Source: a virus
Taxonomy: Duplodnaviria > Heunggongvirae > Uroviricota > Caudoviricetes
Virus record (IMG/VR): IMGVR_UViG_2913167280_000010
Coordinates: 1 to 49,852 of that record
Length of the DNA: 49,852 bases
Direction: 5' to 3' (one strand)
The notes under the pieces were generated by a model. The model was given only the letters and a program-made list of their open reading frames with translations. It was not told where the DNA came from and did not search any database. Numbering within the stretch: the first letter of the stretch is position 1; every line of letters starts with the position of its first letter. Below, piece after piece: positions 21,520 through 29,118 of the stretch. A program made the position numbers and the translations under genes.

Positions 21520-22548
21520 TTATGCGTATTTGGCAGACAACAGGGTGATCCCCTCCGGGCGGAAGTTCCAGCCCGGCGTCGCGCGCATGGTATACAACGT
21601 GGTCAGGCCGCCATCCGGCATAGGGGACGGGATTTCCGTCGGCGCTGCCATGTCGCAGAACATCACGTTGACGGCCTGCTGGTTCGGTACCAGCGTGGAG
21701 AAAATATTGGTGTTAATGGCGTGACGCGCTTCCGGCACCTCAATCGTCGGGTTCGTAACGATGATCAGGTCATTACCACCAGCGCCCTTACCGATCAGCG
21801 TGTCGTCCTGGCAGAAAATGATGTCATCGCCTGTTGCCTTATCGGCGACGTCTTTAACCACCGTTCCCACCGTTCCGGTACCACCACCAGGACGCTGGTA
21901 ACTGGTCAGCTCAACAATTCCTGTCCACTCCAACGCCTTCATGAATCGCTGCGGACTCAGAATGACAGTCGTTAATGGCTGCCCCAGCAGCAACATGCGG
22001 GTTTTCTGGTCAGCAATCAGGCCAAGCATAAATTTAGCCATCTCGCCGGAATCCCAGGTGGTGTAAGAATCATTGCCTTTGCTGTCGTTGCCCAGATTCA
22101 GCGTCACTGCGTTCGGTGAGTTTGTGATCCCCTCGTTATTAGCTGCATTCACACCATACAGCAGCATATTACGCAGCATTTGAGCGTGTCCCTGGCGGTT
22201 AGCCAGGCGCAGGCCTTCAATCAGAGAATAGCCCCAGCGATCTGCTGCATCAGTATCGAGATAGCTGTATTGCGAGCGGGAAGAAATTCGGTAAGTCATC
22301 ATCCCGTCATAGCCGCCAGAAATACTGGAAGACGGCAACTGGCCCGGCAGAGACTGGCTGACCTGCGCCTGCGAGGTCATACGCAAATATTTCTGATAGA
22401 CCATCAAATCACTGGAACTGATTTTTACCGCTGGAGCACCGCCAGCCAGGACTTCAAACGCACCGGAAGCCATGCTCTGTTGCACGATCATTTCCGGCAG
22501 CACCATTGACGGCGACACAATAGTAGTCGCGGGAGTAAATGCGCTCAT
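21520..22548 (-). CDS. Major capsid protein (candidate)
   Basis: 342 aa; position after scaffold/decoration-like genes and before connector genes. Confidence 0.5.
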   Translation of the reverse strand: MSAFTPATTIVSPSMVLPEMIVQQSMASGAFEVLAGGAPAVKISSSDLMVYQKYLRMTSQAQVSQSLPGQLPSSSISGGYDGMMTYRISSRSQYSYLDTDAADRWGYSLIEGLRLANRQGHAQMLRNMLLYGVNAANNEGITNSPNAVTLNLGNDSKGNDSYTTWDSGEMAKFMLGLIADQKTRMLLLGQPLTTVILSPQRFMKALEWTGIVELTSYQRPGGGTGTVGTVVKDVADKATGDDIIFCQDDTLIGKGAGGNDLIIVTNPTIEVPEARHAINTNIFSTLVPNQQAVNVMFCDMAAPTEIPSPMPDGGLTTLYTMRATPGWNFRPEGITLLSAKYA

Positions 22549-22562
22549 TAATTAATATCCCC

Positions 22563-23180
22563 TTAAATTAAAAACAGGCCGCACGGCTTACCGATTTCCC
22601 AGACAACGTTACCGCCGTCCTCTTTTTTCACCGTCAGGTTTCCGTCAACTGAAACCATCAACAACTTAATATCCACTTTCGGATTAGCTCCAGGTGATCC
22701 CGAATAAACATCAACCATGTTTTTCGCCAGATCCCACACAAAACCACTGGCAGCAACGGTGTTATTGCCATCAGCCAGCGCAACAACTTCTGCACTGACA
22801 GGGAGAGGAATGCGGGCACCTGAACCAACGCGGTAATAGTGAATAAAGCCACCCGCGAGATATAACGGCACCGGATTATCCGGCGTGGTAATGCCATGAA
22901 ATGCCTGATTAAAGACAGTAAAGGCGTTACAGGCGTCCTTCGTGGCTTGTTTAATTACCGCGCCGTTAACGCTGTCTTTCGCGGGAGCAATGCACTCCAT
23001 AACTCCAACGCCACCCCATACCGGTTCAGTGATTTTGCTGTCCAGTCGACCGGAGCAAAGTTGCAGACGAATTGCCGGATCATCCTGCGCATCCCCCTGC
23101 ATCAGCCCACGGGATTCGACGTTAAAAAGGCCACCAAATGCTCCACGGTTTTTAAACGGATGAAAGTTAATATCAGCCAT
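22563..23180 (-). CDS. Head protein (205 aa; decoration/accessory candidate)
   Basis: ORF between the scaffold-like and capsid genes. Confidence 0.4.
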   Translation of the reverse strand: MADINFHPFKNRGAFGGLFNVESRGLMQGDAQDDPAIRLQLCSGRLDSKITEPVWGGVGVMECIAPAKDSVNGAVIKQATKDACNAFTVFNQAFHGITTPDNPVPLYLAGGFIHYYRVGSGARIPLPVSAEVVALADGNNTVAASGFVWDLAKNMVDVYSGSPGANPKVDIKLLMVSVDGNLTVKKEDGGNVVWEIGKPCGLFLI

Positions 23181-24495
23181 TGTTCAGGCTCCCTTGAGTG
23201 TTAATTTTTGCCAGACGACGCCCCGGAATTTTGAAAGCACTCAGCCAGACGTTCGGATCGCCCTGATATTCAGTAATGCGACGTCCGGCTTCATCGTTGC
23301 GGATACGTTTATGCAGTTGCCCCTGCGTACTCATCATTTCTTTTTCGATGGACTGACGGGCGGCACTGAAAATTGCGTCCTCAAGCACAGCCAGCGTTGC
23401 AGAATCCGCAATCGCGCGAATATTGACGTCCTTATGTGCCGGAGAGTGTTTCTGCATAGCGATTAGCGCACGCTTGCGGTAGTCCAGCGCATTTTCACCA
23501 GAAAACGGTGCTGGCGCGTTTTTACCGCAGGCACTGAATGCGGAGTCGGCTTTTGCCTGTGCTTCTGCCAGGGCAGAGTCATTGCGTTCTTTTTCTGCCT
23601 CCTCGTCAGCCTTACGCTGTTCTTCCGCTTCGGAATCAGCCTTTGCTTTCTCCTCAGCGTCTTTAGCTGCCGCCTCGTCAGCTTTGGCTTTTTCTTCCGC
23701 CTCCTTTGCCGCAGCTTCATCAGCTTTACGCTGTTTCTCTGCTGCTTCATCGGCTTTGGCCTTTTCTTCGGCCTCTTTTTTCGCCTGAGCTTCGGCGTCC
23801 GCCCGCGCTTTGTCCCGCTGTTCCAGTGAGTCCATGCGCGTAACGACACCATCGATTTTCTGATTAATGCCTTGCAGGGCATCGCTCACAACCCCCTGTA
23901 ACAGGGCCTGGAGTTCTTCTTTTTCCATCTCGATTTCACCTGTGTTTGTCACTTCAACCCCTGCGGGGATCCGGTCTTTATCCCACACGCCCAGCGAGCC
24001 GTGGTCTTTCGTCACCAGGGCGATGTGATCAACAAGGAAAGGAACGCCTTCGATTAAAAAATTGGTGTCACCTTCCTGTACTTCCACATTTCCTGATGTG
24101 CCGTTGAACACCACCGACGGGCTTGTCGAAACATCCCCCTCAGCGATTTCTTCAACAATGCTCTGGAGGTAAACGCGGCACACCGCCCATACCTCATCAC
24201 CCCGGATATACGGCAGCATGACGCTACCGACGATCCGCGATTTAAAATCCTCCTCCGTCAGAACTGCGTCGTCAGGATGGTTTGCGATAACCGGAAGGCC
24301 ATTGCATCGCCTTAAAAACTCCTCGTTCAGATAGAGCTTTGGATCACGCCAGACGTGCTCTTTCAGTCCGGCGCGATAGGCAAGCCCGGTTCCGGTTATT
24401 CGCAAATTCACCAGCCACATGTTGGAGAATTTCACCGGAGACGGTACGGTTCCGTCCCTGATGCGTTCTGCCACTTCAAGCTCGGTTAAACTCAC
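23173..24495 (-). CDS. Head scaffold/maturation protein with internal EEKAKADEAA tandem repeats
   Basis: 440 aa; GTG start with GGAGAAGGG RBS; central coiled region with about 11-aa repeats; position after the portal and morphogenesis genes. Confidence 0.45.
   Translation of the reverse strand: MSLTELEVAERIRDGTVPSPVKFSNMWLVNLRITGTGLAYRAGLKEHVWRDPKLYLNEEFLRRCNGLPVIANHPDDAVLTEEDFKSRIVGSVMLPYIRGDEVWAVCRVYLQSIVEEIAEGDVSTSPSVVFNGTSGNVEVQEGDTNFLIEGVPFLVDHIALVTKDHGSLGVWDKDRIPAGVEVTNTGEIEMEKEELQALLQGVVSDALQGINQKIDGVVTRMDSLEQRDKARADAEAQAKKEAEEKAKADEAAEKQRKADEAAAKEAEEKAKADEAAAKDAEEKAKADSEAEEQRKADEEAEKERNDSALAEAQAKADSAFSACGKNAPAPFSGENALDYRKRALIAMQKHSPAHKDVNIRAIADSATLAVLEDAIFSAARQSIEKEMMSTQGQLHKRIRNDEAGRRITEYQGDPNVWLSAFKIPGRRLAKINTQGSLNNG
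23580..23800. repeat. Imperfect tandem repeats (about 33 bp) inside the scaffold-like gene
   Basis: Repeated GCTTTGGCTTTTTCTTCCGCCTC-like units encoding EEKAKADEAA(A/E)K repeats. Confidence 0.6.
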
Positions 24496-25309
24496 GTTTG
24501 CCCTTCTCCGTTAAAAATTCGTCGGGTAGATTCTGAGGGGCGTAGATCGGCAGTGCATCGCAACTGCAATAAACCTCCTCCCCGGCAGCAGTGATTTCGT
24601 CATAAAAACCATATACGGGCTTAATCAGTCCCTGCTCCAGCGCCCACGAATCGCGGAGGAGATAAATTTTCTCGTCGCGCTCTTTGTGGTCCTGCCGGTA
24701 TTTGTAGCCCGGACGCCGCCAGTTCGAATGCCAGCGCAGAGCAATCGCACCACTCTGAACAGCCAGCAGATACTTAACGTTGCTTGCCAGCTTATGCCCC
24801 TGGTCAATTGCCACCCGGCGACTGATAAAATCCATATCCTTCACGGACTTCTGAAAACCGGACTTCACTTCCCGGCGATCAATTTCGCTCACCCCGTCAG
24901 GCGGAATGGACGTAACCCACCCCTGAAAACGCTGTATGGTTTTCTCGATGGCCTGTTCTCGGTTGAGTTTTATCAGGTTGGCACTGGCGAAAATTCGCCT
25001 GTCGAGTTCCTTGCGAAACTCAGGTTTCAGTTTTTCAACAGTGATTTTTTTAGGGCCGTCAGGAGGCTGATCCCGTAATGCCCCGCCGTCGATGACAAGA
25101 CGGCTGTAGATAGCGGTGAGGTGTTTTCTGGCTACGGTATCATCAGGGGTTTCTCGCTGAGCGGCTACACGGAGTTTCCGGCACCATTCGAGCAATGATT
25201 TTTCGCTATCCCACCCGTGATTTACGTAGTAGTTAACGGCATCCGTCAGAACCTCATACAGCGTCCTGAGCCGTTTCTTCTTCCTCACCGCCCGGCTGGA
25301 AATTGCCAT
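24476..25309 (-). CDS. Head morphogenesis/minor head protein (about 277 aa)
   Basis: Track ORF 24476..25447 trimmed to the ATG at 25309 with AGGAGA RBS; follows the portal gene. Confidence 0.4.
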   Translation of the reverse strand: MAISSRAVRKKKRLRTLYEVLTDAVNYYVNHGWDSEKSLLEWCRKLRVAAQRETPDDTVARKHLTAIYSRLVIDGGALRDQPPDGPKKITVEKLKPEFRKELDRRIFASANLIKLNREQAIEKTIQRFQGWVTSIPPDGVSEIDRREVKSGFQKSVKDMDFISRRVAIDQGHKLASNVKYLLAVQSGAIALRWHSNWRRPGYKYRQDHKERDEKIYLLRDSWALEQGLIKPVYGFYDEITAAGEEVYCSCDALPIYAPQNLPDEFLTEKGKREFNRA

Positions 25310-26690
25310 CAGGCGTCTCCTGCTTCGGTGGTTCATAATTCGCCAGCGCGTCCACATCAATGATGAGTGGAGCTTCGCCATAGGTTTGCGTGGCATTAAC
25401 AAGGCTTGCCAGCCATTCAGCGAGGGCGGCGCGGTTTTCAGGATCAACCTGTGGCGACACAGCAGAGAAAAGTGCTATCGCCTGTTGAATCACTTTACTG
25501 TCGCTTTCCCGGCGTTTGTCCGGCGACTCCTCAACCAGTTCCTGCCACGTCGCGGTAAATTCACGTCGCCACTGGTAAAACGTGGTTTTATAGTCGTCGG
25601 TTATGATGTCCGGGTAATCATTTTTCAGCGACTGATAAAATTCCTCGTTCCAGGCGATGTACTGCACCAGGCGTTCGAAATAATCCATCACAGGTTCAAT
25701 CTGCTGGCGTACACCATCGATATACTGGCTGATAGCTTTCGAGTCCTCCTTACCTTCACCGAATCCGTTACTGAACGCTTCTTCCTTGATAATAATGGCC
25801 GGAACGTCACTCCCGGCGGCAATATCAGCAATGATGTTGTCGCGGGATGTATTCAGCGCCCCGTCGATGTTTTGCAGGTTCAGTGAACTTACGTCTTCGT
25901 CTTTTCCAATACTCAACACGCCTTTATTTTTGGCGGCTTTCACGTTTTCCCTTTTACGCCCCGTGGCAGCAGCCATGATCCCGTCAATTTTCGAACCGTT
26001 CTGCACAACTTTAGCCACCAGTACGCCTGCCTTCTGGCTGACGAGATCATTCGCCTCCATCGTATTGATATAGGATTTCAGGGAATAAAGAACTCGCTGA
26101 AACACGCTTCGCCCGGTGAATCCGAACGATGAACTCTGAAACTCCAGATAAATCGGTGTGCCGTTGAAGATTTTCAGTGTGCGTGACGGATGCCAGTCTT
26201 TTCCGCCAATCTTCAGTTTTTTATTGGCTTCCTGGAAAAACGGGCTGTTGGGGTTCTGGTCAGTCACCATCGAACCGGAAGCGTTCAACGGGTCCCACGC
26301 GTTGATATACACGTCATCTTCTGTCAGTCCGAACGTCGGAAGCGGCTCACGACATGAAACACTGTCGGTGCCCACGCCGATCGCTGCGGCACCGTAGCAA
26401 CGAGACAGAAAAAACAGATTTTTAATCTTCTCGTTAACCTTCATACGTTCCCATACCTCCTGGAAACGCCGCACAACCCGCTCGTCAGGGTCTGTCTCCA
26501 CGTTGTACTGGCGCGGCTTACACATCGCCATCAGTATGGGTTTTTCGACAAGTTTCCCGCCCAACGGGTGGTACTGCCACAGCAGCTTACACAATTCATA
26601 GCCGATATCGGTTCCCGGCTGAATTTCTTCAGCCTCAAGAATACGCATCAGTGCCGAACCGAGGCCGCCAGTAATCTCGATCTCTGCCAT
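25254..26690 (-). CDS. Portal protein (candidate)
   Basis: About 478 aa, directly downstream of terL; acidic C-terminus. Confidence 0.55.
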   Translation of the reverse strand: MAEIEITGGLGSALMRILEAEEIQPGTDIGYELCKLLWQYHPLGGKLVEKPILMAMCKPRQYNVETDPDERVVRRFQEVWERMKVNEKIKNLFFLSRCYGAAAIGVGTDSVSCREPLPTFGLTEDDVYINAWDPLNASGSMVTDQNPNSPFFQEANKKLKIGGKDWHPSRTLKIFNGTPIYLEFQSSSFGFTGRSVFQRVLYSLKSYINTMEANDLVSQKAGVLVAKVVQNGSKIDGIMAAATGRKRENVKAAKNKGVLSIGKDEDVSSLNLQNIDGALNTSRDNIIADIAAGSDVPAIIIKEEAFSNGFGEGKEDSKAISQYIDGVRQQIEPVMDYFERLVQYIAWNEEFYQSLKNDYPDIITDDYKTTFYQWRREFTATWQELVEESPDKRRESDSKVIQQAIALFSAVSPQVDPENRAALAEWLASLVNATQTYGEAPLIIDVDALANYEPPKQETPDGNFQPGGEEEETAQDAV

Positions 26691-26708
26691 CAAAAATATC
26701 CTGATTTT

Positions 26709-28037
26709 TTACAACGCCGCGTAATTACCGTGCGCGATGATCAACCCATAGGTGTAACAATCGAAAAGGTCATCAGCACGTTTATGCGCATCTTTGTCTG
26801 CCAGGTGGAACCCGGCGATTTGTTTTATGAGGTGGTTTGCGGTGGTGCGTTTGAATGAAACGGTCTTGTCGTAAGCCTCCCGGACGATTTTGCACATCCC
26901 CTGATAGTGGTAGCTGGATGCCATCACCGCCCGTTCGTCTTTGCCCTTGCTGGTTAGTGCCGATTTAATCGGCGTCATATCCCAGCCTTCGGTTTCCGCC
27001 TTCTGGTTGAGAATTGCCCCCATCGCGGCGTCTTCCATAAAAATTCCCTGGCTGCCCAGACGCGGACGGCATAATTTCGCGAGGCGCTCGAGGTTGTCAT
27101 AAACGCCGGGGATATATTCAGGAAGCAATGACGCTTTAATTTGCGTCACATCCCAGTCAATAATCGTCAGTTTTGGCTCGTCCGAATACGTTGACTCATA
27201 AGCGAAATACACCACGCCAGTACCATCATTTTCGGTCCCGCCTTTCAGCGCCGTATCCATCACTGCGAAAATCATGTCGCAGTGCGGCGGCATCTCAATC
27301 GGCTGACCGTCCACCAGCAGCTTATCGACATCGAGTAACGCATCTTTGGACCAGTCCACGAACTCGGCAAGATATTCCTGCTGCCAGACACGCGGATCGG
27401 ATTTCTTCTCCGTTTCCTCCAGTTCTTCTTTCGGAATATACGGATTCGATGAAGTTGGCGCATGGTGCATGACAAATCCCAGGGATTCATCGTGGCATAT
27501 CGCGTAGAAAAAATTGCTCTCGTCGATACCGTTTGGTGTGGAAAATACCCACGCACAGCCGCGGTAATCGACAAGCGTCGGGCGTATCGCTCGGGGCCAG
27601 ATTTCCTCGAGCATTTCCGGCGATTTAGTGAATGCGGCCTCATCAATCAGCACAGCGTGATATTTACGCCCACGCCCGGCCAGTTTGTTATTGTCCGTTA
27701 CCCAAAAGTCGATGCGCCCCCCATTACGGAGAATGATGCGCTTTTCATTTTTTGACTGACTGAGGATCAGCGGTTGCAGAACGGCGCTAATTTCATCCCA
27801 GATTTCCTGGTACTGGCGGTATTGCGCGGTAAAAATCCCCACCCTACCCGCGATAAGTTGCCCGGTGGTAGGAACGGCAAATTTCCGCGTAGCGAAACTG
27901 GTAGCGATGTTCACCAGCATCACCGTTTTACCCCAGCGACGACCACAGCATACCGCGTGGAAGCGTTCCTCTATTGCCGCCGTCCATGCAGCTATTTGCC
28001 CCTCATGAGGTTTTGGGAGGTAGATTTCAATCGACAT
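26709..28037 (-). CDS. Terminase large subunit
   Basis: 442 aa; Walker A-like CCGRRWGKT near the N-terminus; overlaps the terS stop. Confidence 0.8.
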   Translation of the reverse strand: MSIEIYLPKPHEGQIAAWTAAIEERFHAVCCGRRWGKTVMLVNIATSFATRKFAVPTTGQLIAGRVGIFTAQYRQYQEIWDEISAVLQPLILSQSKNEKRIILRNGGRIDFWVTDNNKLAGRGRKYHAVLIDEAAFTKSPEMLEEIWPRAIRPTLVDYRGCAWVFSTPNGIDESNFFYAICHDESLGFVMHHAPTSSNPYIPKEELEETEKKSDPRVWQQEYLAEFVDWSKDALLDVDKLLVDGQPIEMPPHCDMIFAVMDTALKGGTENDGTGVVYFAYESTYSDEPKLTIIDWDVTQIKASLLPEYIPGVYDNLERLAKLCRPRLGSQGIFMEDAAMGAILNQKAETEGWDMTPIKSALTSKGKDERAVMASSYHYQGMCKIVREAYDKTVSFKRTTANHLIKQIAGFHLADKDAHKRADDLFDCYTYGLIIAHGNYAAL

Positions 28038-29118
28038 TATCCACTCCCGGCATCGGCAGAGAGTTGTGGATAATTATTTCGTTATTCTCACCACCCACGC
28101 CTTTTTTGAGGTTTTCAATCTCAGTGCGCAGCTTTTCGTTGCGAAGCCTCAGTCCTTCAAGCTCCAGATCATTGCGACTGTCAGTTGCACCACCAGCAGA
28201 ACTTCCTTTCGTCGCCATTATCAGCTTGATAAGTTCGCGCCGGGCGGCAGCCTTATCCTCCAGCAGGATCTCAACACCAAATTTCCCGAGCTTTGCCCCT
28301 GCATATAATTGTCGCGCATCCCCATCAAGCAGAGTGGTATCAGCCATATAAAGCTGTCCCGTTCCCTCACCGCAGCACTTCGGACAATCCGGATTGGGTA
28401 TGGCGTTATCAACAAAGCCAAGGCCTCCATATTCCGGCTCGGATTTGCCATCTCTGGAGGCCTGTGCCGCTGCCTTATCGAATTCTGCAATATCACGCCA
28501 CTGGTAGAGGTGATTCTCGCCCCAGCAATAACGGCAGTTAACACGGCGAAATTGTGCCAACTGATTGGGGTCGGCCTGGACAATGGCCATCAACTGACTC
28601 ACCAGTAAATCCAGGTCTGCGGTATAGCGTTTCTGGTACTGATTGCGGAACCATGAGATAGCCCGATAAACCTTAACATTTCTTAACAGACGTGAGGCTG
28701 CGGCACTTGCTACGTTTCCCGTTCCCTCGTAACCCGCTAGGCGGTATGCCTCGATGAGGTTTTTACCCTGCGCAACCAGCATGGCGAATTTTGCCTGCTG
28801 GTCAGAAATGCCGAATTCATCGGGACAGAATGAAATTTCCTCCACGTCGCCCTCATTCAGGCACGCATCGGATACTGACTTTTTTTTCTGAGATTTTCCG
28901 TTCCGCTTTTGCGCAGTCTGCGCAAATTTTTTCTGCGCACTTTTTTGCGCAGTTTTGCGCACTTCTGTCTGCGCATTTTTCGGAGGTTTTTTGATGTAAC
29001 GACGGGCTGTTGCGTAATTCAATCCCCTTGCTTCACACCATGCCACCGGAGATATACCGGAGCGGGTGTATTCAGCAATATACTCCTGCTGCAACGCCCC
29101 CCAGTCCGGTCTGCTCAT
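28027..29118 (-). CDS. Terminase small subunit (HTH plus terS core plus zinc ribbon)
   Basis: 363 aa; terS-type motif QQAKFAMLVAQGKNLIEAYRLAGYEG...ASRLL; CxxC...CxxC pairs; contains a TGCGCA array. Confidence 0.65.
   Translation of the reverse strand: MSRPDWGALQQEYIAEYTRSGISPVAWCEARGLNYATARRYIKKPPKNAQTEVRKTAQKSAQKKFAQTAQKRNGKSQKKKSVSDACLNEGDVEEISFCPDEFGISDQQAKFAMLVAQGKNLIEAYRLAGYEGTGNVASAAASRLLRNVKVYRAISWFRNQYQKRYTADLDLLVSQLMAIVQADPNQLAQFRRVNCRYCWGENHLYQWRDIAEFDKAAAQASRDGKSEPEYGGLGFVDNAIPNPDCPKCCGEGTGQLYMADTTLLDGDARQLYAGAKLGKFGVEILLEDKAAARRELIKLIMATKGSSAGGATDSRNDLELEGLRLRNEKLRTEIENLKKGVGGENNEIIIHNSLPMPGVDNVD
28910..28975. repeat. Array of six palindromic TGCGCA hexamers at 10-15 bp spacing inside terS (candidate pac or terS-binding site)
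   Basis: TGCGCA at about 28910, 28919, 28934, 28946, 28956 and 28970, each flanked by T-runs. Confidence 0.5.

Follow-up and report, generated by a model that had tools for sequence, protein, structure and literature searches.

What is the nature of the alanine-, glutamate- and lysine-rich tandem repeat found within a head gene of a tailed virus, and what would such a repeat do in a protein that takes part in capsid assembly? The question is raised by the virus record IMGVR_UViG_2913167280_000010 (Caudoviricetes), the whole 49,852-nt stretch of which was analysed and is referred to below as the window. An initial inspection of the letters alone (the sequence-only reading) had described imperfect repeats of about 33 bp at positions 23580-23800, encoding a coiled segment of a scaffold-like head protein, with a copy number that might vary between related phages and affect procapsid assembly. 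This region corresponds to residues 232-306 of a 440-aa protein with a GTG start, encoded on the minus strand at 23173..24495, in which a prohead protease appears to be fused to a scaffold-like part; an identical 1323-nt coding sequence (CDS) is present in Escherichia coli genomes in RefSeq under the name 'DUF2213 domain-containing protein'. With a probability of roughly 60%, we interpret the element as a peptide-level repeat in a charged, helical or semi-flexible linker of a prophage protease-scaffold polyprotein, which probably includes a nested scaffold gene and in which turnover of the repeat units is tolerated.

Dissection of the units and shuffle tests confirmed that the tandem repeats are real. 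In the region concerned, the protein reads ...AKKEAEEKAKADEAAEKQRKADEAAAKEAEEKAKADEAAAKDAEEKAKADSEAEEQRKADEEAEKERND..., and anchoring on the K-A-D tripeptide resolved a repeat core at residues 239-300 (23596..23781, minus strand) that contains five copies of the 10-aa motif E-E-[KQ]-[AR]-K-A-D-[ES]-[AE]-A, namely EEKAKADEAA, EKQRKADEAA, EEKAKADEAA, EEKAKADSEA and EEQRKADEEA. A 4-aa spacer (KKEA, AKEA or AKDA) stands in front of three copies, which yields 14-aa units (type A) next to the 10-aa ones (type B). The units follow each other in the order A-B-A-A-B, with K-A-D to K-A-D spacings of 10, 14, 14 and 10 aa, and are all located on the minus strand: A1 at 23740-23781, B1 at 23710-23739, A2 at 23668-23709, A3 at 23626-23667 and B2 at 23596-23625. 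The amino-acid autocorrelation over residues 232-306 peaks at lags 10 (0.40), 14 (0.43), 24 (0.53) and 38 (0.62), and the observed autocorrelation was attained in 0 of 5000 composition-preserving shuffles (mean maximum, 0.35); at the DNA level, a single codon shuffle out of 3000 attained the observed value. The period of ~33 bp, on the other hand, had to be revised, with DNA identity being 0.39 at a lag of 33 nt vs 0.53 at 30 and 42 nt and 0.61 at 72 and 114 nt. The units recur every 30 or 42 nt (36 nt on average), and Tandem Repeats Finder (TRF) reported only a weak 42-bp array (2.2 copies, 74%). Residues 239-300 are composed of 34% Ala, 37% Glu and Asp, and 24% Lys and Arg, with not a single Leu, Ile, Val, Met, Phe, Trp or Tyr, and belong to a longer Ala/Glu/Lys/Asp tract of 97 residues (aa 226-322; 23530..23820, minus strand) with a net charge of -10.

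The repeat exists at the peptide level alone, and the DNA repeat is its shadow. The units are 62-79% identical in DNA, and at positions where two units share the same amino acid, the codons differ with a frequency of 0.58, compared with 0.55 expected from independent draws from the codon usage of the gene. This codon-identity test was used in place of the Nei-Gojobori pS, which is uninformative here, where two-fold codons dominate; its values, unreliable as they are in this setting, were 0.07-0.33 for the N-terminal domain between orthologous alleles vs ~1.0 between units of one allele. Codon-randomised units were likewise observed in four other alleles, and in allele L028 four units share the identical peptide EEQRKADEAA with different codons throughout. 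Saturation of the synonymous sites between the units rules out a recent DNA tandem duplication or slippage array, and the combination of the same peptides with saturated codons indicates that the unit duplications are old and that the peptide was held by selection. No functional study of the repeat was found in the DUF2213 literature.

Variation of the copy number among close relatives, as anticipated from the sequence alone, was directly observed. Of the 5426 complete E. coli genomes, 87 carry the gene, in every case chromosomally, and the full-length E. coli copies listed comprise alleles of 440 aa (CDS of 1323 nt; 41 copies), 430 aa (1293 nt; 11 copies), 416 aa (1251 nt; 1 copy) and 415 aa (1248 nt; 1 copy). 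These alleles are 98.2-99.0% identical outside the tract, whereas all indels fall within it and in frame, removing unit B1 (30 nt), a 72-nt segment that runs from A2 into the start of B2, or a segment of 75 nt, with each indel bordered by microhomology between the units, for example AAAGC[CT]GATGAAGC. The IMG/VR loci added alleles of the A-B-B-B-B type, with flanks that are 96-97% identical, and one pure B array, with flanks at 86%. Given that the IMG/VR units are codon-scrambled too, the arrays look like the outcome of exchanges between diverged alleles rather than of fresh slippage. The diversity described here comes from a search of representative sequences and from the IMG/VR loci, the first homologue search having returned only proteins that are at least 98% identical and all 440 aa long. 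In relatives with at least 55% identity, the tract spans 82-110 aa, with one outlier of 162 aa at 55% identity, and in 145 representatives with 35-50% identity the inter-domain region extends over 107-338 aa (median 168; 144 in the query), is always rich in Lys, Ala, Asp and Glu, and is built from different units. The repeat is thus conserved in one respect and not in the other: unit sequence and copy number are not maintained beyond ~60% identity, whereas a charged tract with the [KR]xD[AS] motif discussed below occurs family-wide. Copy-number variation is ordinary for linkers of this kind, and finding alleles of different length in prophages that are otherwise almost the same speaks for tolerance more than for a strong effect on assembly. 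Neither the heptad nor the helical phase survives indels of 10, 24 and 25 residues, which points to a tolerant tether, and the natural alleles with five, four and three units constitute a ready-made series for the role of linker length in capsid assembly.

Which structure the tract adopts was approached through its charge pattern, its periodicity and an AlphaFold2 model built on 78 homologues. The model contains long helices at residues 192-244 and 274-322, so that the tract is predicted to be mostly helical. Opposite charges are paired at i/i+4 28 times (13 expected) and like charges 5 times (13.4 expected), each deviating by about 4 standard deviations in the respective direction. Such dense i/i+4 opposite-charge pairing with no hydrophobic seam is what characterizes ER/K single alpha-helices, and the very high Glu, Lys and Ala content, the lack of a seam and the excess of i/i+4 opposite-charge pairs are shared with domain II of TolA as well. 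A canonical coiled coil of two or three strands that oligomerises the scaffold, which is how we understood the coiled segment of the sequence-only reading, would be in line with the long helices drawn by AlphaFold2, with the 14-aa unit being equal to two heptads, with many phage scaffolds being elongated helical dimers, and with the ability of Ala-rich helices to pack as 'alacoils'. It is nevertheless at odds with the absence of core hydrophobic residues noted above, with the apolar power (Ala included) of 0.35 at period 3.5, where there is no peak and the dominant period is 2, and with the flat apolar occupancy of the heptad positions (4, 5, 7, 2, 7, 6 and 4 of 13-14). Moreover, the heptad register is displaced by 3-4 positions both by a 10-aa unit and by the natural indels, whose lengths of 10, 24 and 25 aa are not multiples of 7. 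On grounds of periodicity and indel lengths the canonical coiled coil was rejected, and we regard it as highly improbable.

If, alternatively, the tract were a disordered polyampholyte of which only charge and length are required, with the repeats being by-products of neutral slippage, then the low local confidence of the model (block means of the predicted local distance difference test, pLDDT, of 44-56 over residues 231-280), the free variation in the number and type of units, the wide length range in distant homologues, and the different, acidic linker, rich in Glu, Ala, Gly and Gln, of the counterpart in phage PB1 would all be accommodated. However, the Ala/Glu/Lys content is strongly helix-favouring and the i/i+4 salt-bridge pairs are twice as numerous as expected, and identical peptides under saturated codons, together with an Asp-specific motif conserved across the family, represent the opposite of neutrality. 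We consider full disorder improbable and favour a highly charged, seam-free tether of the single-alpha-helix type, which may be alpha-helical or semi-flexible, over a two-stranded coiled coil.

The elements that flank the tract differ from it in character. Preceding it is an amphipathic segment (aa 192-225, ending with R-M-D-S-L-E; 23821..23922, minus strand) with 35% LIVMFWY, modelled as a helix with pLDDT of 66-88; over residues 186-225, the apolar periodicity peaks at 3.6-3.8 residues, with a power of 1.57 at period 3.67, and RMDxxE forms part of the family consensus. By analogy with the interior helix of Pa193 gp24 (see below), this segment is a candidate oligomerisation or capsid-contact helix. 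At the other end, the tract is delimited by the boundary motif A-Q-A-K-A-D-S-A-F (aa 312-320; 23536..23562, minus strand), which includes the last K-A-D copy, is modelled with pLDDT >90 and is nearly invariant across the family (consensus ADAQARADSVxxAFG; Q313, A316 and D317 conserved in at least 90% of 78 sequences). It is followed by a C-terminal globular domain of helices and a beta-hairpin (aa 330-440; 23176..23508, minus strand), with block-mean pLDDT of 85-98 over residues 331-430 and conserved columns at E334, Y339, R340, R342 and S351, among others, which is presumably the capsid- or portal-binding end of the scaffold.

The N-terminal part of the protein (approximately aa 1-180; 23956..24495, minus strand) provides the other half of the fusion. 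Residues 46-163 match the Pfam family DUF2213 (PF09979) with 25.6 bits (E=1.4e-5), above the cut-off of 22, and the protein matches PHROG 6216 (E=1.6e-205), a family without a functional label, as well as, weakly, PHROG families annotated as 'head maturation protease'. The domain is modelled with pLDDT of 90-98 over residues 1-160, and a Foldseek comparison of the model with viral models (BFVD) retrieved DUF2213 proteins and prohead proteases. In the model, the domain has the assemblin-like fold of the T4 gp21, HK97 and herpes assemblin class, which suggests a serine protease of the T4 gp21/herpes assemblin fold. Across the 78 homologues, His73 and the triplet Thr124-Ser125-Pro126 do not vary, and Asp156-His157 is retained in at least 90%, which gives the order His...Ser...His, comparable with the order of the conserved residues in the herpes UL26/UL26.5 assemblin; PMC4498786 describes the herpes protease triad as Ser-His-His. 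The DUF2213 domain may be proteolytically active. Most members of the family carry an additional N-terminal NUDIX hydrolase domain of ~120-180 aa (relatives P0128-P0269), which the window protein lacks, and the alignment of the PHROG 6216 profile with the window protein starts only at position 114. When the whole-family profile was compared with the PDB, only NUDIX proteins were matched, through this N-terminal extension of other family members.

The scaffold-like part may be produced in two forms, once as the extension of the protease and once from a start of its own. An internal ATG, Met190 (23926..23928, minus strand), is preceded at a distance of 7 nt by the Shine-Dalgarno-like sequence AGGTGA (23936..23941, minus strand) and would be the start of a nested, in-frame scaffold of 251 aa (aa 190-440). 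We compared the starts in 30 non-redundant relatives, mutually <90% identical and with identities to the query down to 40%. An ATG is present at the position aligned with Met190 in the query and in all 30 relatives, and 28 of the 30 have AGGTGA or GAGGTG (a 5-7-nt Shine-Dalgarno match) 6-7 nt upstream. The site is kept across different codings, namely T-G-E/D (ACA GGT GAN) vs P-E-V (CCT GAG GTG). Overall, 44 of the 475 in-frame internal ATGs are accompanied by a Shine-Dalgarno 5-mer, ~28 of them at the Met190 site vs roughly 16 of 445 elsewhere. Conservation of the ATG and its Shine-Dalgarno site despite different residues is what would be expected of a nested in-frame scaffold gene, and translation starting at Met190 probably yields a separate scaffold.

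Genomic context is consistent with this assignment. On the minus strand, the genes for the portal (25254-26693), a Mu-F-like head morphogenesis protein (24476-25447), the DUF2213 protein, a Gly/Val-rich 205-aa protein (22563-23180) and a major-capsid-like protein (21520-22548) follow each other in this order, with the start of the DUF2213 gene overlapping the Mu-F-like gene by 20 nt. The location between the portal and major capsid genes and the elongated helical protein are those of a scaffold, and no other helical scaffold candidate is found between the portal gene and the capsid gene. The description as a scaffold-like head protein, offered from the sequence alone, therefore stands, all the more so as the Pbunavirus counterpart was seen bound inside the capsid vertices.

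That counterpart is gp22 of phage PB1, which also contains DUF2213 (E=5.5e-29) and is annotated as a head maturation protease. The gene order in PB1 is the same (portal, Mu-F-like, DUF2213, a protein of ~205-211 aa and major capsid protein), and the DUF2213 proteins of Pbunavirus are of similar size (465-478 aa vs 440 aa here). In PB1 gp22, too, the middle is charged and of low complexity and the C-terminal part is helical, with an analogous methionine (Met182) after the protease domain and the Shine-Dalgarno-like GAGGG 7 nt upstream of it. In contrast, its linker is rich in Glu, Ala, Gly and Gln and contains neither the [KR]xD[ASE] motif nor K-A-D repeats. Direct homology to PB1 gp22 could not be demonstrated (no match in BLAST; hhalign probability of 4%), and the link is drawn through the common Pfam domain and synteny. 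Residues 286-326 of gp24 of Pa193, a DUF2213 protein and the orthologue of PB1 gp22, were seen by cryo-electron microscopy as a pentameric helix-turn-helix under the five-fold vertices of the capsid, and the authors read gp24 as a scaffold remnant or putative scaffolding protein (PMC11456595). The EMSGE turn and 5 of the 6 named residues of the interior helix are common to Pa193 gp24 and PB1 gp22.

Nested protease and scaffold genes with a common 3' end are known from herpesviruses, where UL26 and UL26.5 overlap in frame, as would be the case here judging from the conserved internal start. The herpesvirus nested gene has a separate promoter, whereas here internal translation initiation on a single mRNA would have to be assumed. 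The phage lambda protease C is of the ClpP/S49 type and does not have the assemblin fold. An overlap of this kind between the lambda C and Nu3 genes is known from Shaw & Murialdo 1980, as cited in PMC8508860. The T4 gp21-type proteases (T4, phiKZ gp175 and SPN3US gp245) share only 9% sequence identity and carry no long scaffold extension with charged repeats. Proteases of this type cleave their own C-termini, with multiple sites giving rise to small, clearable fragments (PMC5694885).

These precedents bear on a further feature of the tract, namely its preference for aspartate at one position. In the tracts of the 145 diverse homologues, [KR]-x-D-[AS] occurs 668 times vs 110 expected from composition, a six-fold enrichment, whereas [KR]-x-E-[AS] is depleted (44 vs 113 expected) despite the equal frequency of Asp and Glu. 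Spacing matters, with [KR].D (i+2) enriched two-fold and [KR]..D (i+3) not enriched. Centred on Asp, the motif has the consensus K-A-[RK]-[AK]-D-A-E-E-K, and the median tract contains 5 copies of it. Hardly any variation is seen in the two copies that delimit the tract, R-A-D233-A and K-A-D317-S, with each of the residues D233 and D317 conserved in at least 90% of the sequences. Among the head and neighbouring genes of the window, the DUF2213 protein has 11 matches to the motif vs 0-1 in each of ten neighbouring proteins. The motif is compatible with two readings: it may represent helix C-cap/N-cap junctions, which would make the tract a segmented helix, or sites for the fused protease.

According to the latter possibility, the K-A-D units would be serial cleavage sites with Lys or Arg at P3, Asp at P1 and Ala, Ser or Glu at P1'. 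After assembly, the linker would be cut into peptides of 10-14 residues able to leave the capsid, and cuts at R-A-D233-A and K-A-D317-S would free the C-terminal domain. The enrichment of the Asp motif with depletion of its Glu version, the near-invariance of the boundary copies, the conservation of the unit peptides under randomised codons and the near-confinement of the motif to the DUF2213 protein within the head module would all be expected of such sites, and T4 gp21, the closest fold, and its phiKZ and SPN3US relatives indeed cut after an acidic residue, in the form P3-x-Glu (PMC5694885). Yet four of the five core units in the window read K-A-D-E rather than K-A-D-A/S, the succession of a basic residue, Asp, a small residue and acidic residues is also the look of helix C-cap/N-cap junctions, and the DUF2213 proteins of the PB1 type do without the motif. 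The major capsid protein has no [KR]xD[AS] site either, so that no independent substrate confirms the specificity. Hence, we hold it to be rather unlikely that the K-A-D units and the family-wide motif are recognition or cleavage sites of the fused DUF2213 protease, and mention the consequences only tentatively. If true, cutting next to Asp at this motif would be a specificity new to prohead proteases, and the linker would be a built-in self-destruct cassette in which the number of units sets how finely the scaffold is diced, with selection on each site explaining identical peptides with scrambled codons. In any event, the Asp motif provides a concrete guess for the cleavage specificity of the DUF2213 protease group.

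The tether interpretation itself has to be weighed against several observations. The strong preference for aspartate, a poor helix former, over Glu is not explained by the stability of a single alpha-helix. Aspartate also occupies a fixed place in each unit, setting the tract apart from ER/K single alpha-helices. Single alpha-helices prefer Glu. The helical state of residues 231-280 is uncertain because of their low pLDDT, and randomised codons beneath identical 10-aa peptides testify to purifying selection beyond the need of a mere spacer. With respect to the protease, neither the profile of the domain nor the single sequence matched any solved protease in the PDB at the sequence level, so that the active site is an assignment that we infer from conservation and order, with His73, Ser125 and His157 as the putative catalytic residues.

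With these points taken into account, we still prefer the protease-scaffold polyprotein with a tolerant linker, for which the following model can be proposed. The polyprotein would consist, in this order, of the N-terminal protease, the short amphipathic helix, the 97-residue tract with its five units and the C-terminal domain. A nested scaffold sharing its C-terminus with the protease would be produced from Met190 through the conserved internal ribosome-binding site. The tract would space the oligomerising helix and the protease from the C-terminal domain inside the procapsid, and its units would be gained, lost and exchanged by recombination between similar units, changes of 10-25 residues being tolerated. 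Taken alone, the repeat amounts to a low-complexity linker of an ordinary sort in a protein of phage assembly; of more value to annotation is that a widespread prophage gene can now be read as encoding a fusion of a capsid maturation protease and a scaffold, within which a nested gene probably lies.

Existing annotations of the gene are varied. In GenBank relatives H63-H76, it is labelled TolA protein, NUDIX hydrolase, glycosyl transferase or hypothetical protein, and none of these relatives is named protease or scaffold. A TolA-like envelope protein, suggested by such product names in phages Rac-SA53 and vB_Apl-pPE4 and by a match to the NCBIfam model tolA_full (E=3e-7 over residues 228-325), is refuted by cut-offs and domain content. 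TolA models scored 30 bits against a cut-off of 59.45 and 23.3 against 213, and matched residues 226-325 only, that is, the low-complexity tract, the composition of which resembles TolA. Besides, Pfam detects no TolA domain, neither the membrane anchor nor the C-terminal domain of TolA is found with Pfam or NCBIfam, the gene lies in a head module and the N-terminal domain has a prohead protease fold, leaving the TolA identity next to no credibility. The primary identity of the protein can be read as a protease-scaffold fusion, not TolA.

Two further open reading frames across the repeat, one on the minus strand (23463-23882; 139 aa, Lys/Arg-rich) and one on the plus strand (23582-23788; 68 aa, Ser/Ala-rich), are by-products of the repetitive GAA/GCN/AAA codons and were discarded as genes; among the frames across the repeat, the conserved one is that of DUF2213.

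The 205-aa protein encoded next to the DUF2213 gene occupies the slot of the PB1 cement protein gp23 (PF22758), to which it has no detectable similarity, and yielded no match in Pfam or NCBIfam. It could belong to another family of cement or decoration proteins.

The domain has also been encountered outside the phage literature, in a transposon-insertion sequencing (Tn-seq) study of Burkholderia cenocepacia that proposed DUF2213 as an 'essential domain of unknown function' (PMC8770471). The prohead protease fold described here suggests that the B. cenocepacia gene is a prophage head gene, and its essentiality call may need another explanation.

Some observations concern related phage genomes and the remainder of the window. 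The record PP818812.1 (L002, 'Actinobacillus phage vB_Apl-pPE4') carries at 6001-7323 a gene 98% identical to those of the E. coli prophages, and the head-module genes on either side are arranged as in phage Rac-SA53; the host under which the phage was deposited, Actinobacillus pleuropneumoniae, looks doubtful. In phage Rac-SA53 (L001), eltIIaA and eltIIaB, encoding the heat-labile enterotoxin IIa, are located at 11938-13078, just upstream of the head-module terminase genes. In the window, the palindromic hexamer TGCGCA occurs six times within ~70 bp (28907-28980), inside a minus-strand open reading frame (28027-29118) just upstream of the large terminase-like one (26709-28037), and this cluster could be a pac-type packaging recognition site within a small-terminase gene.

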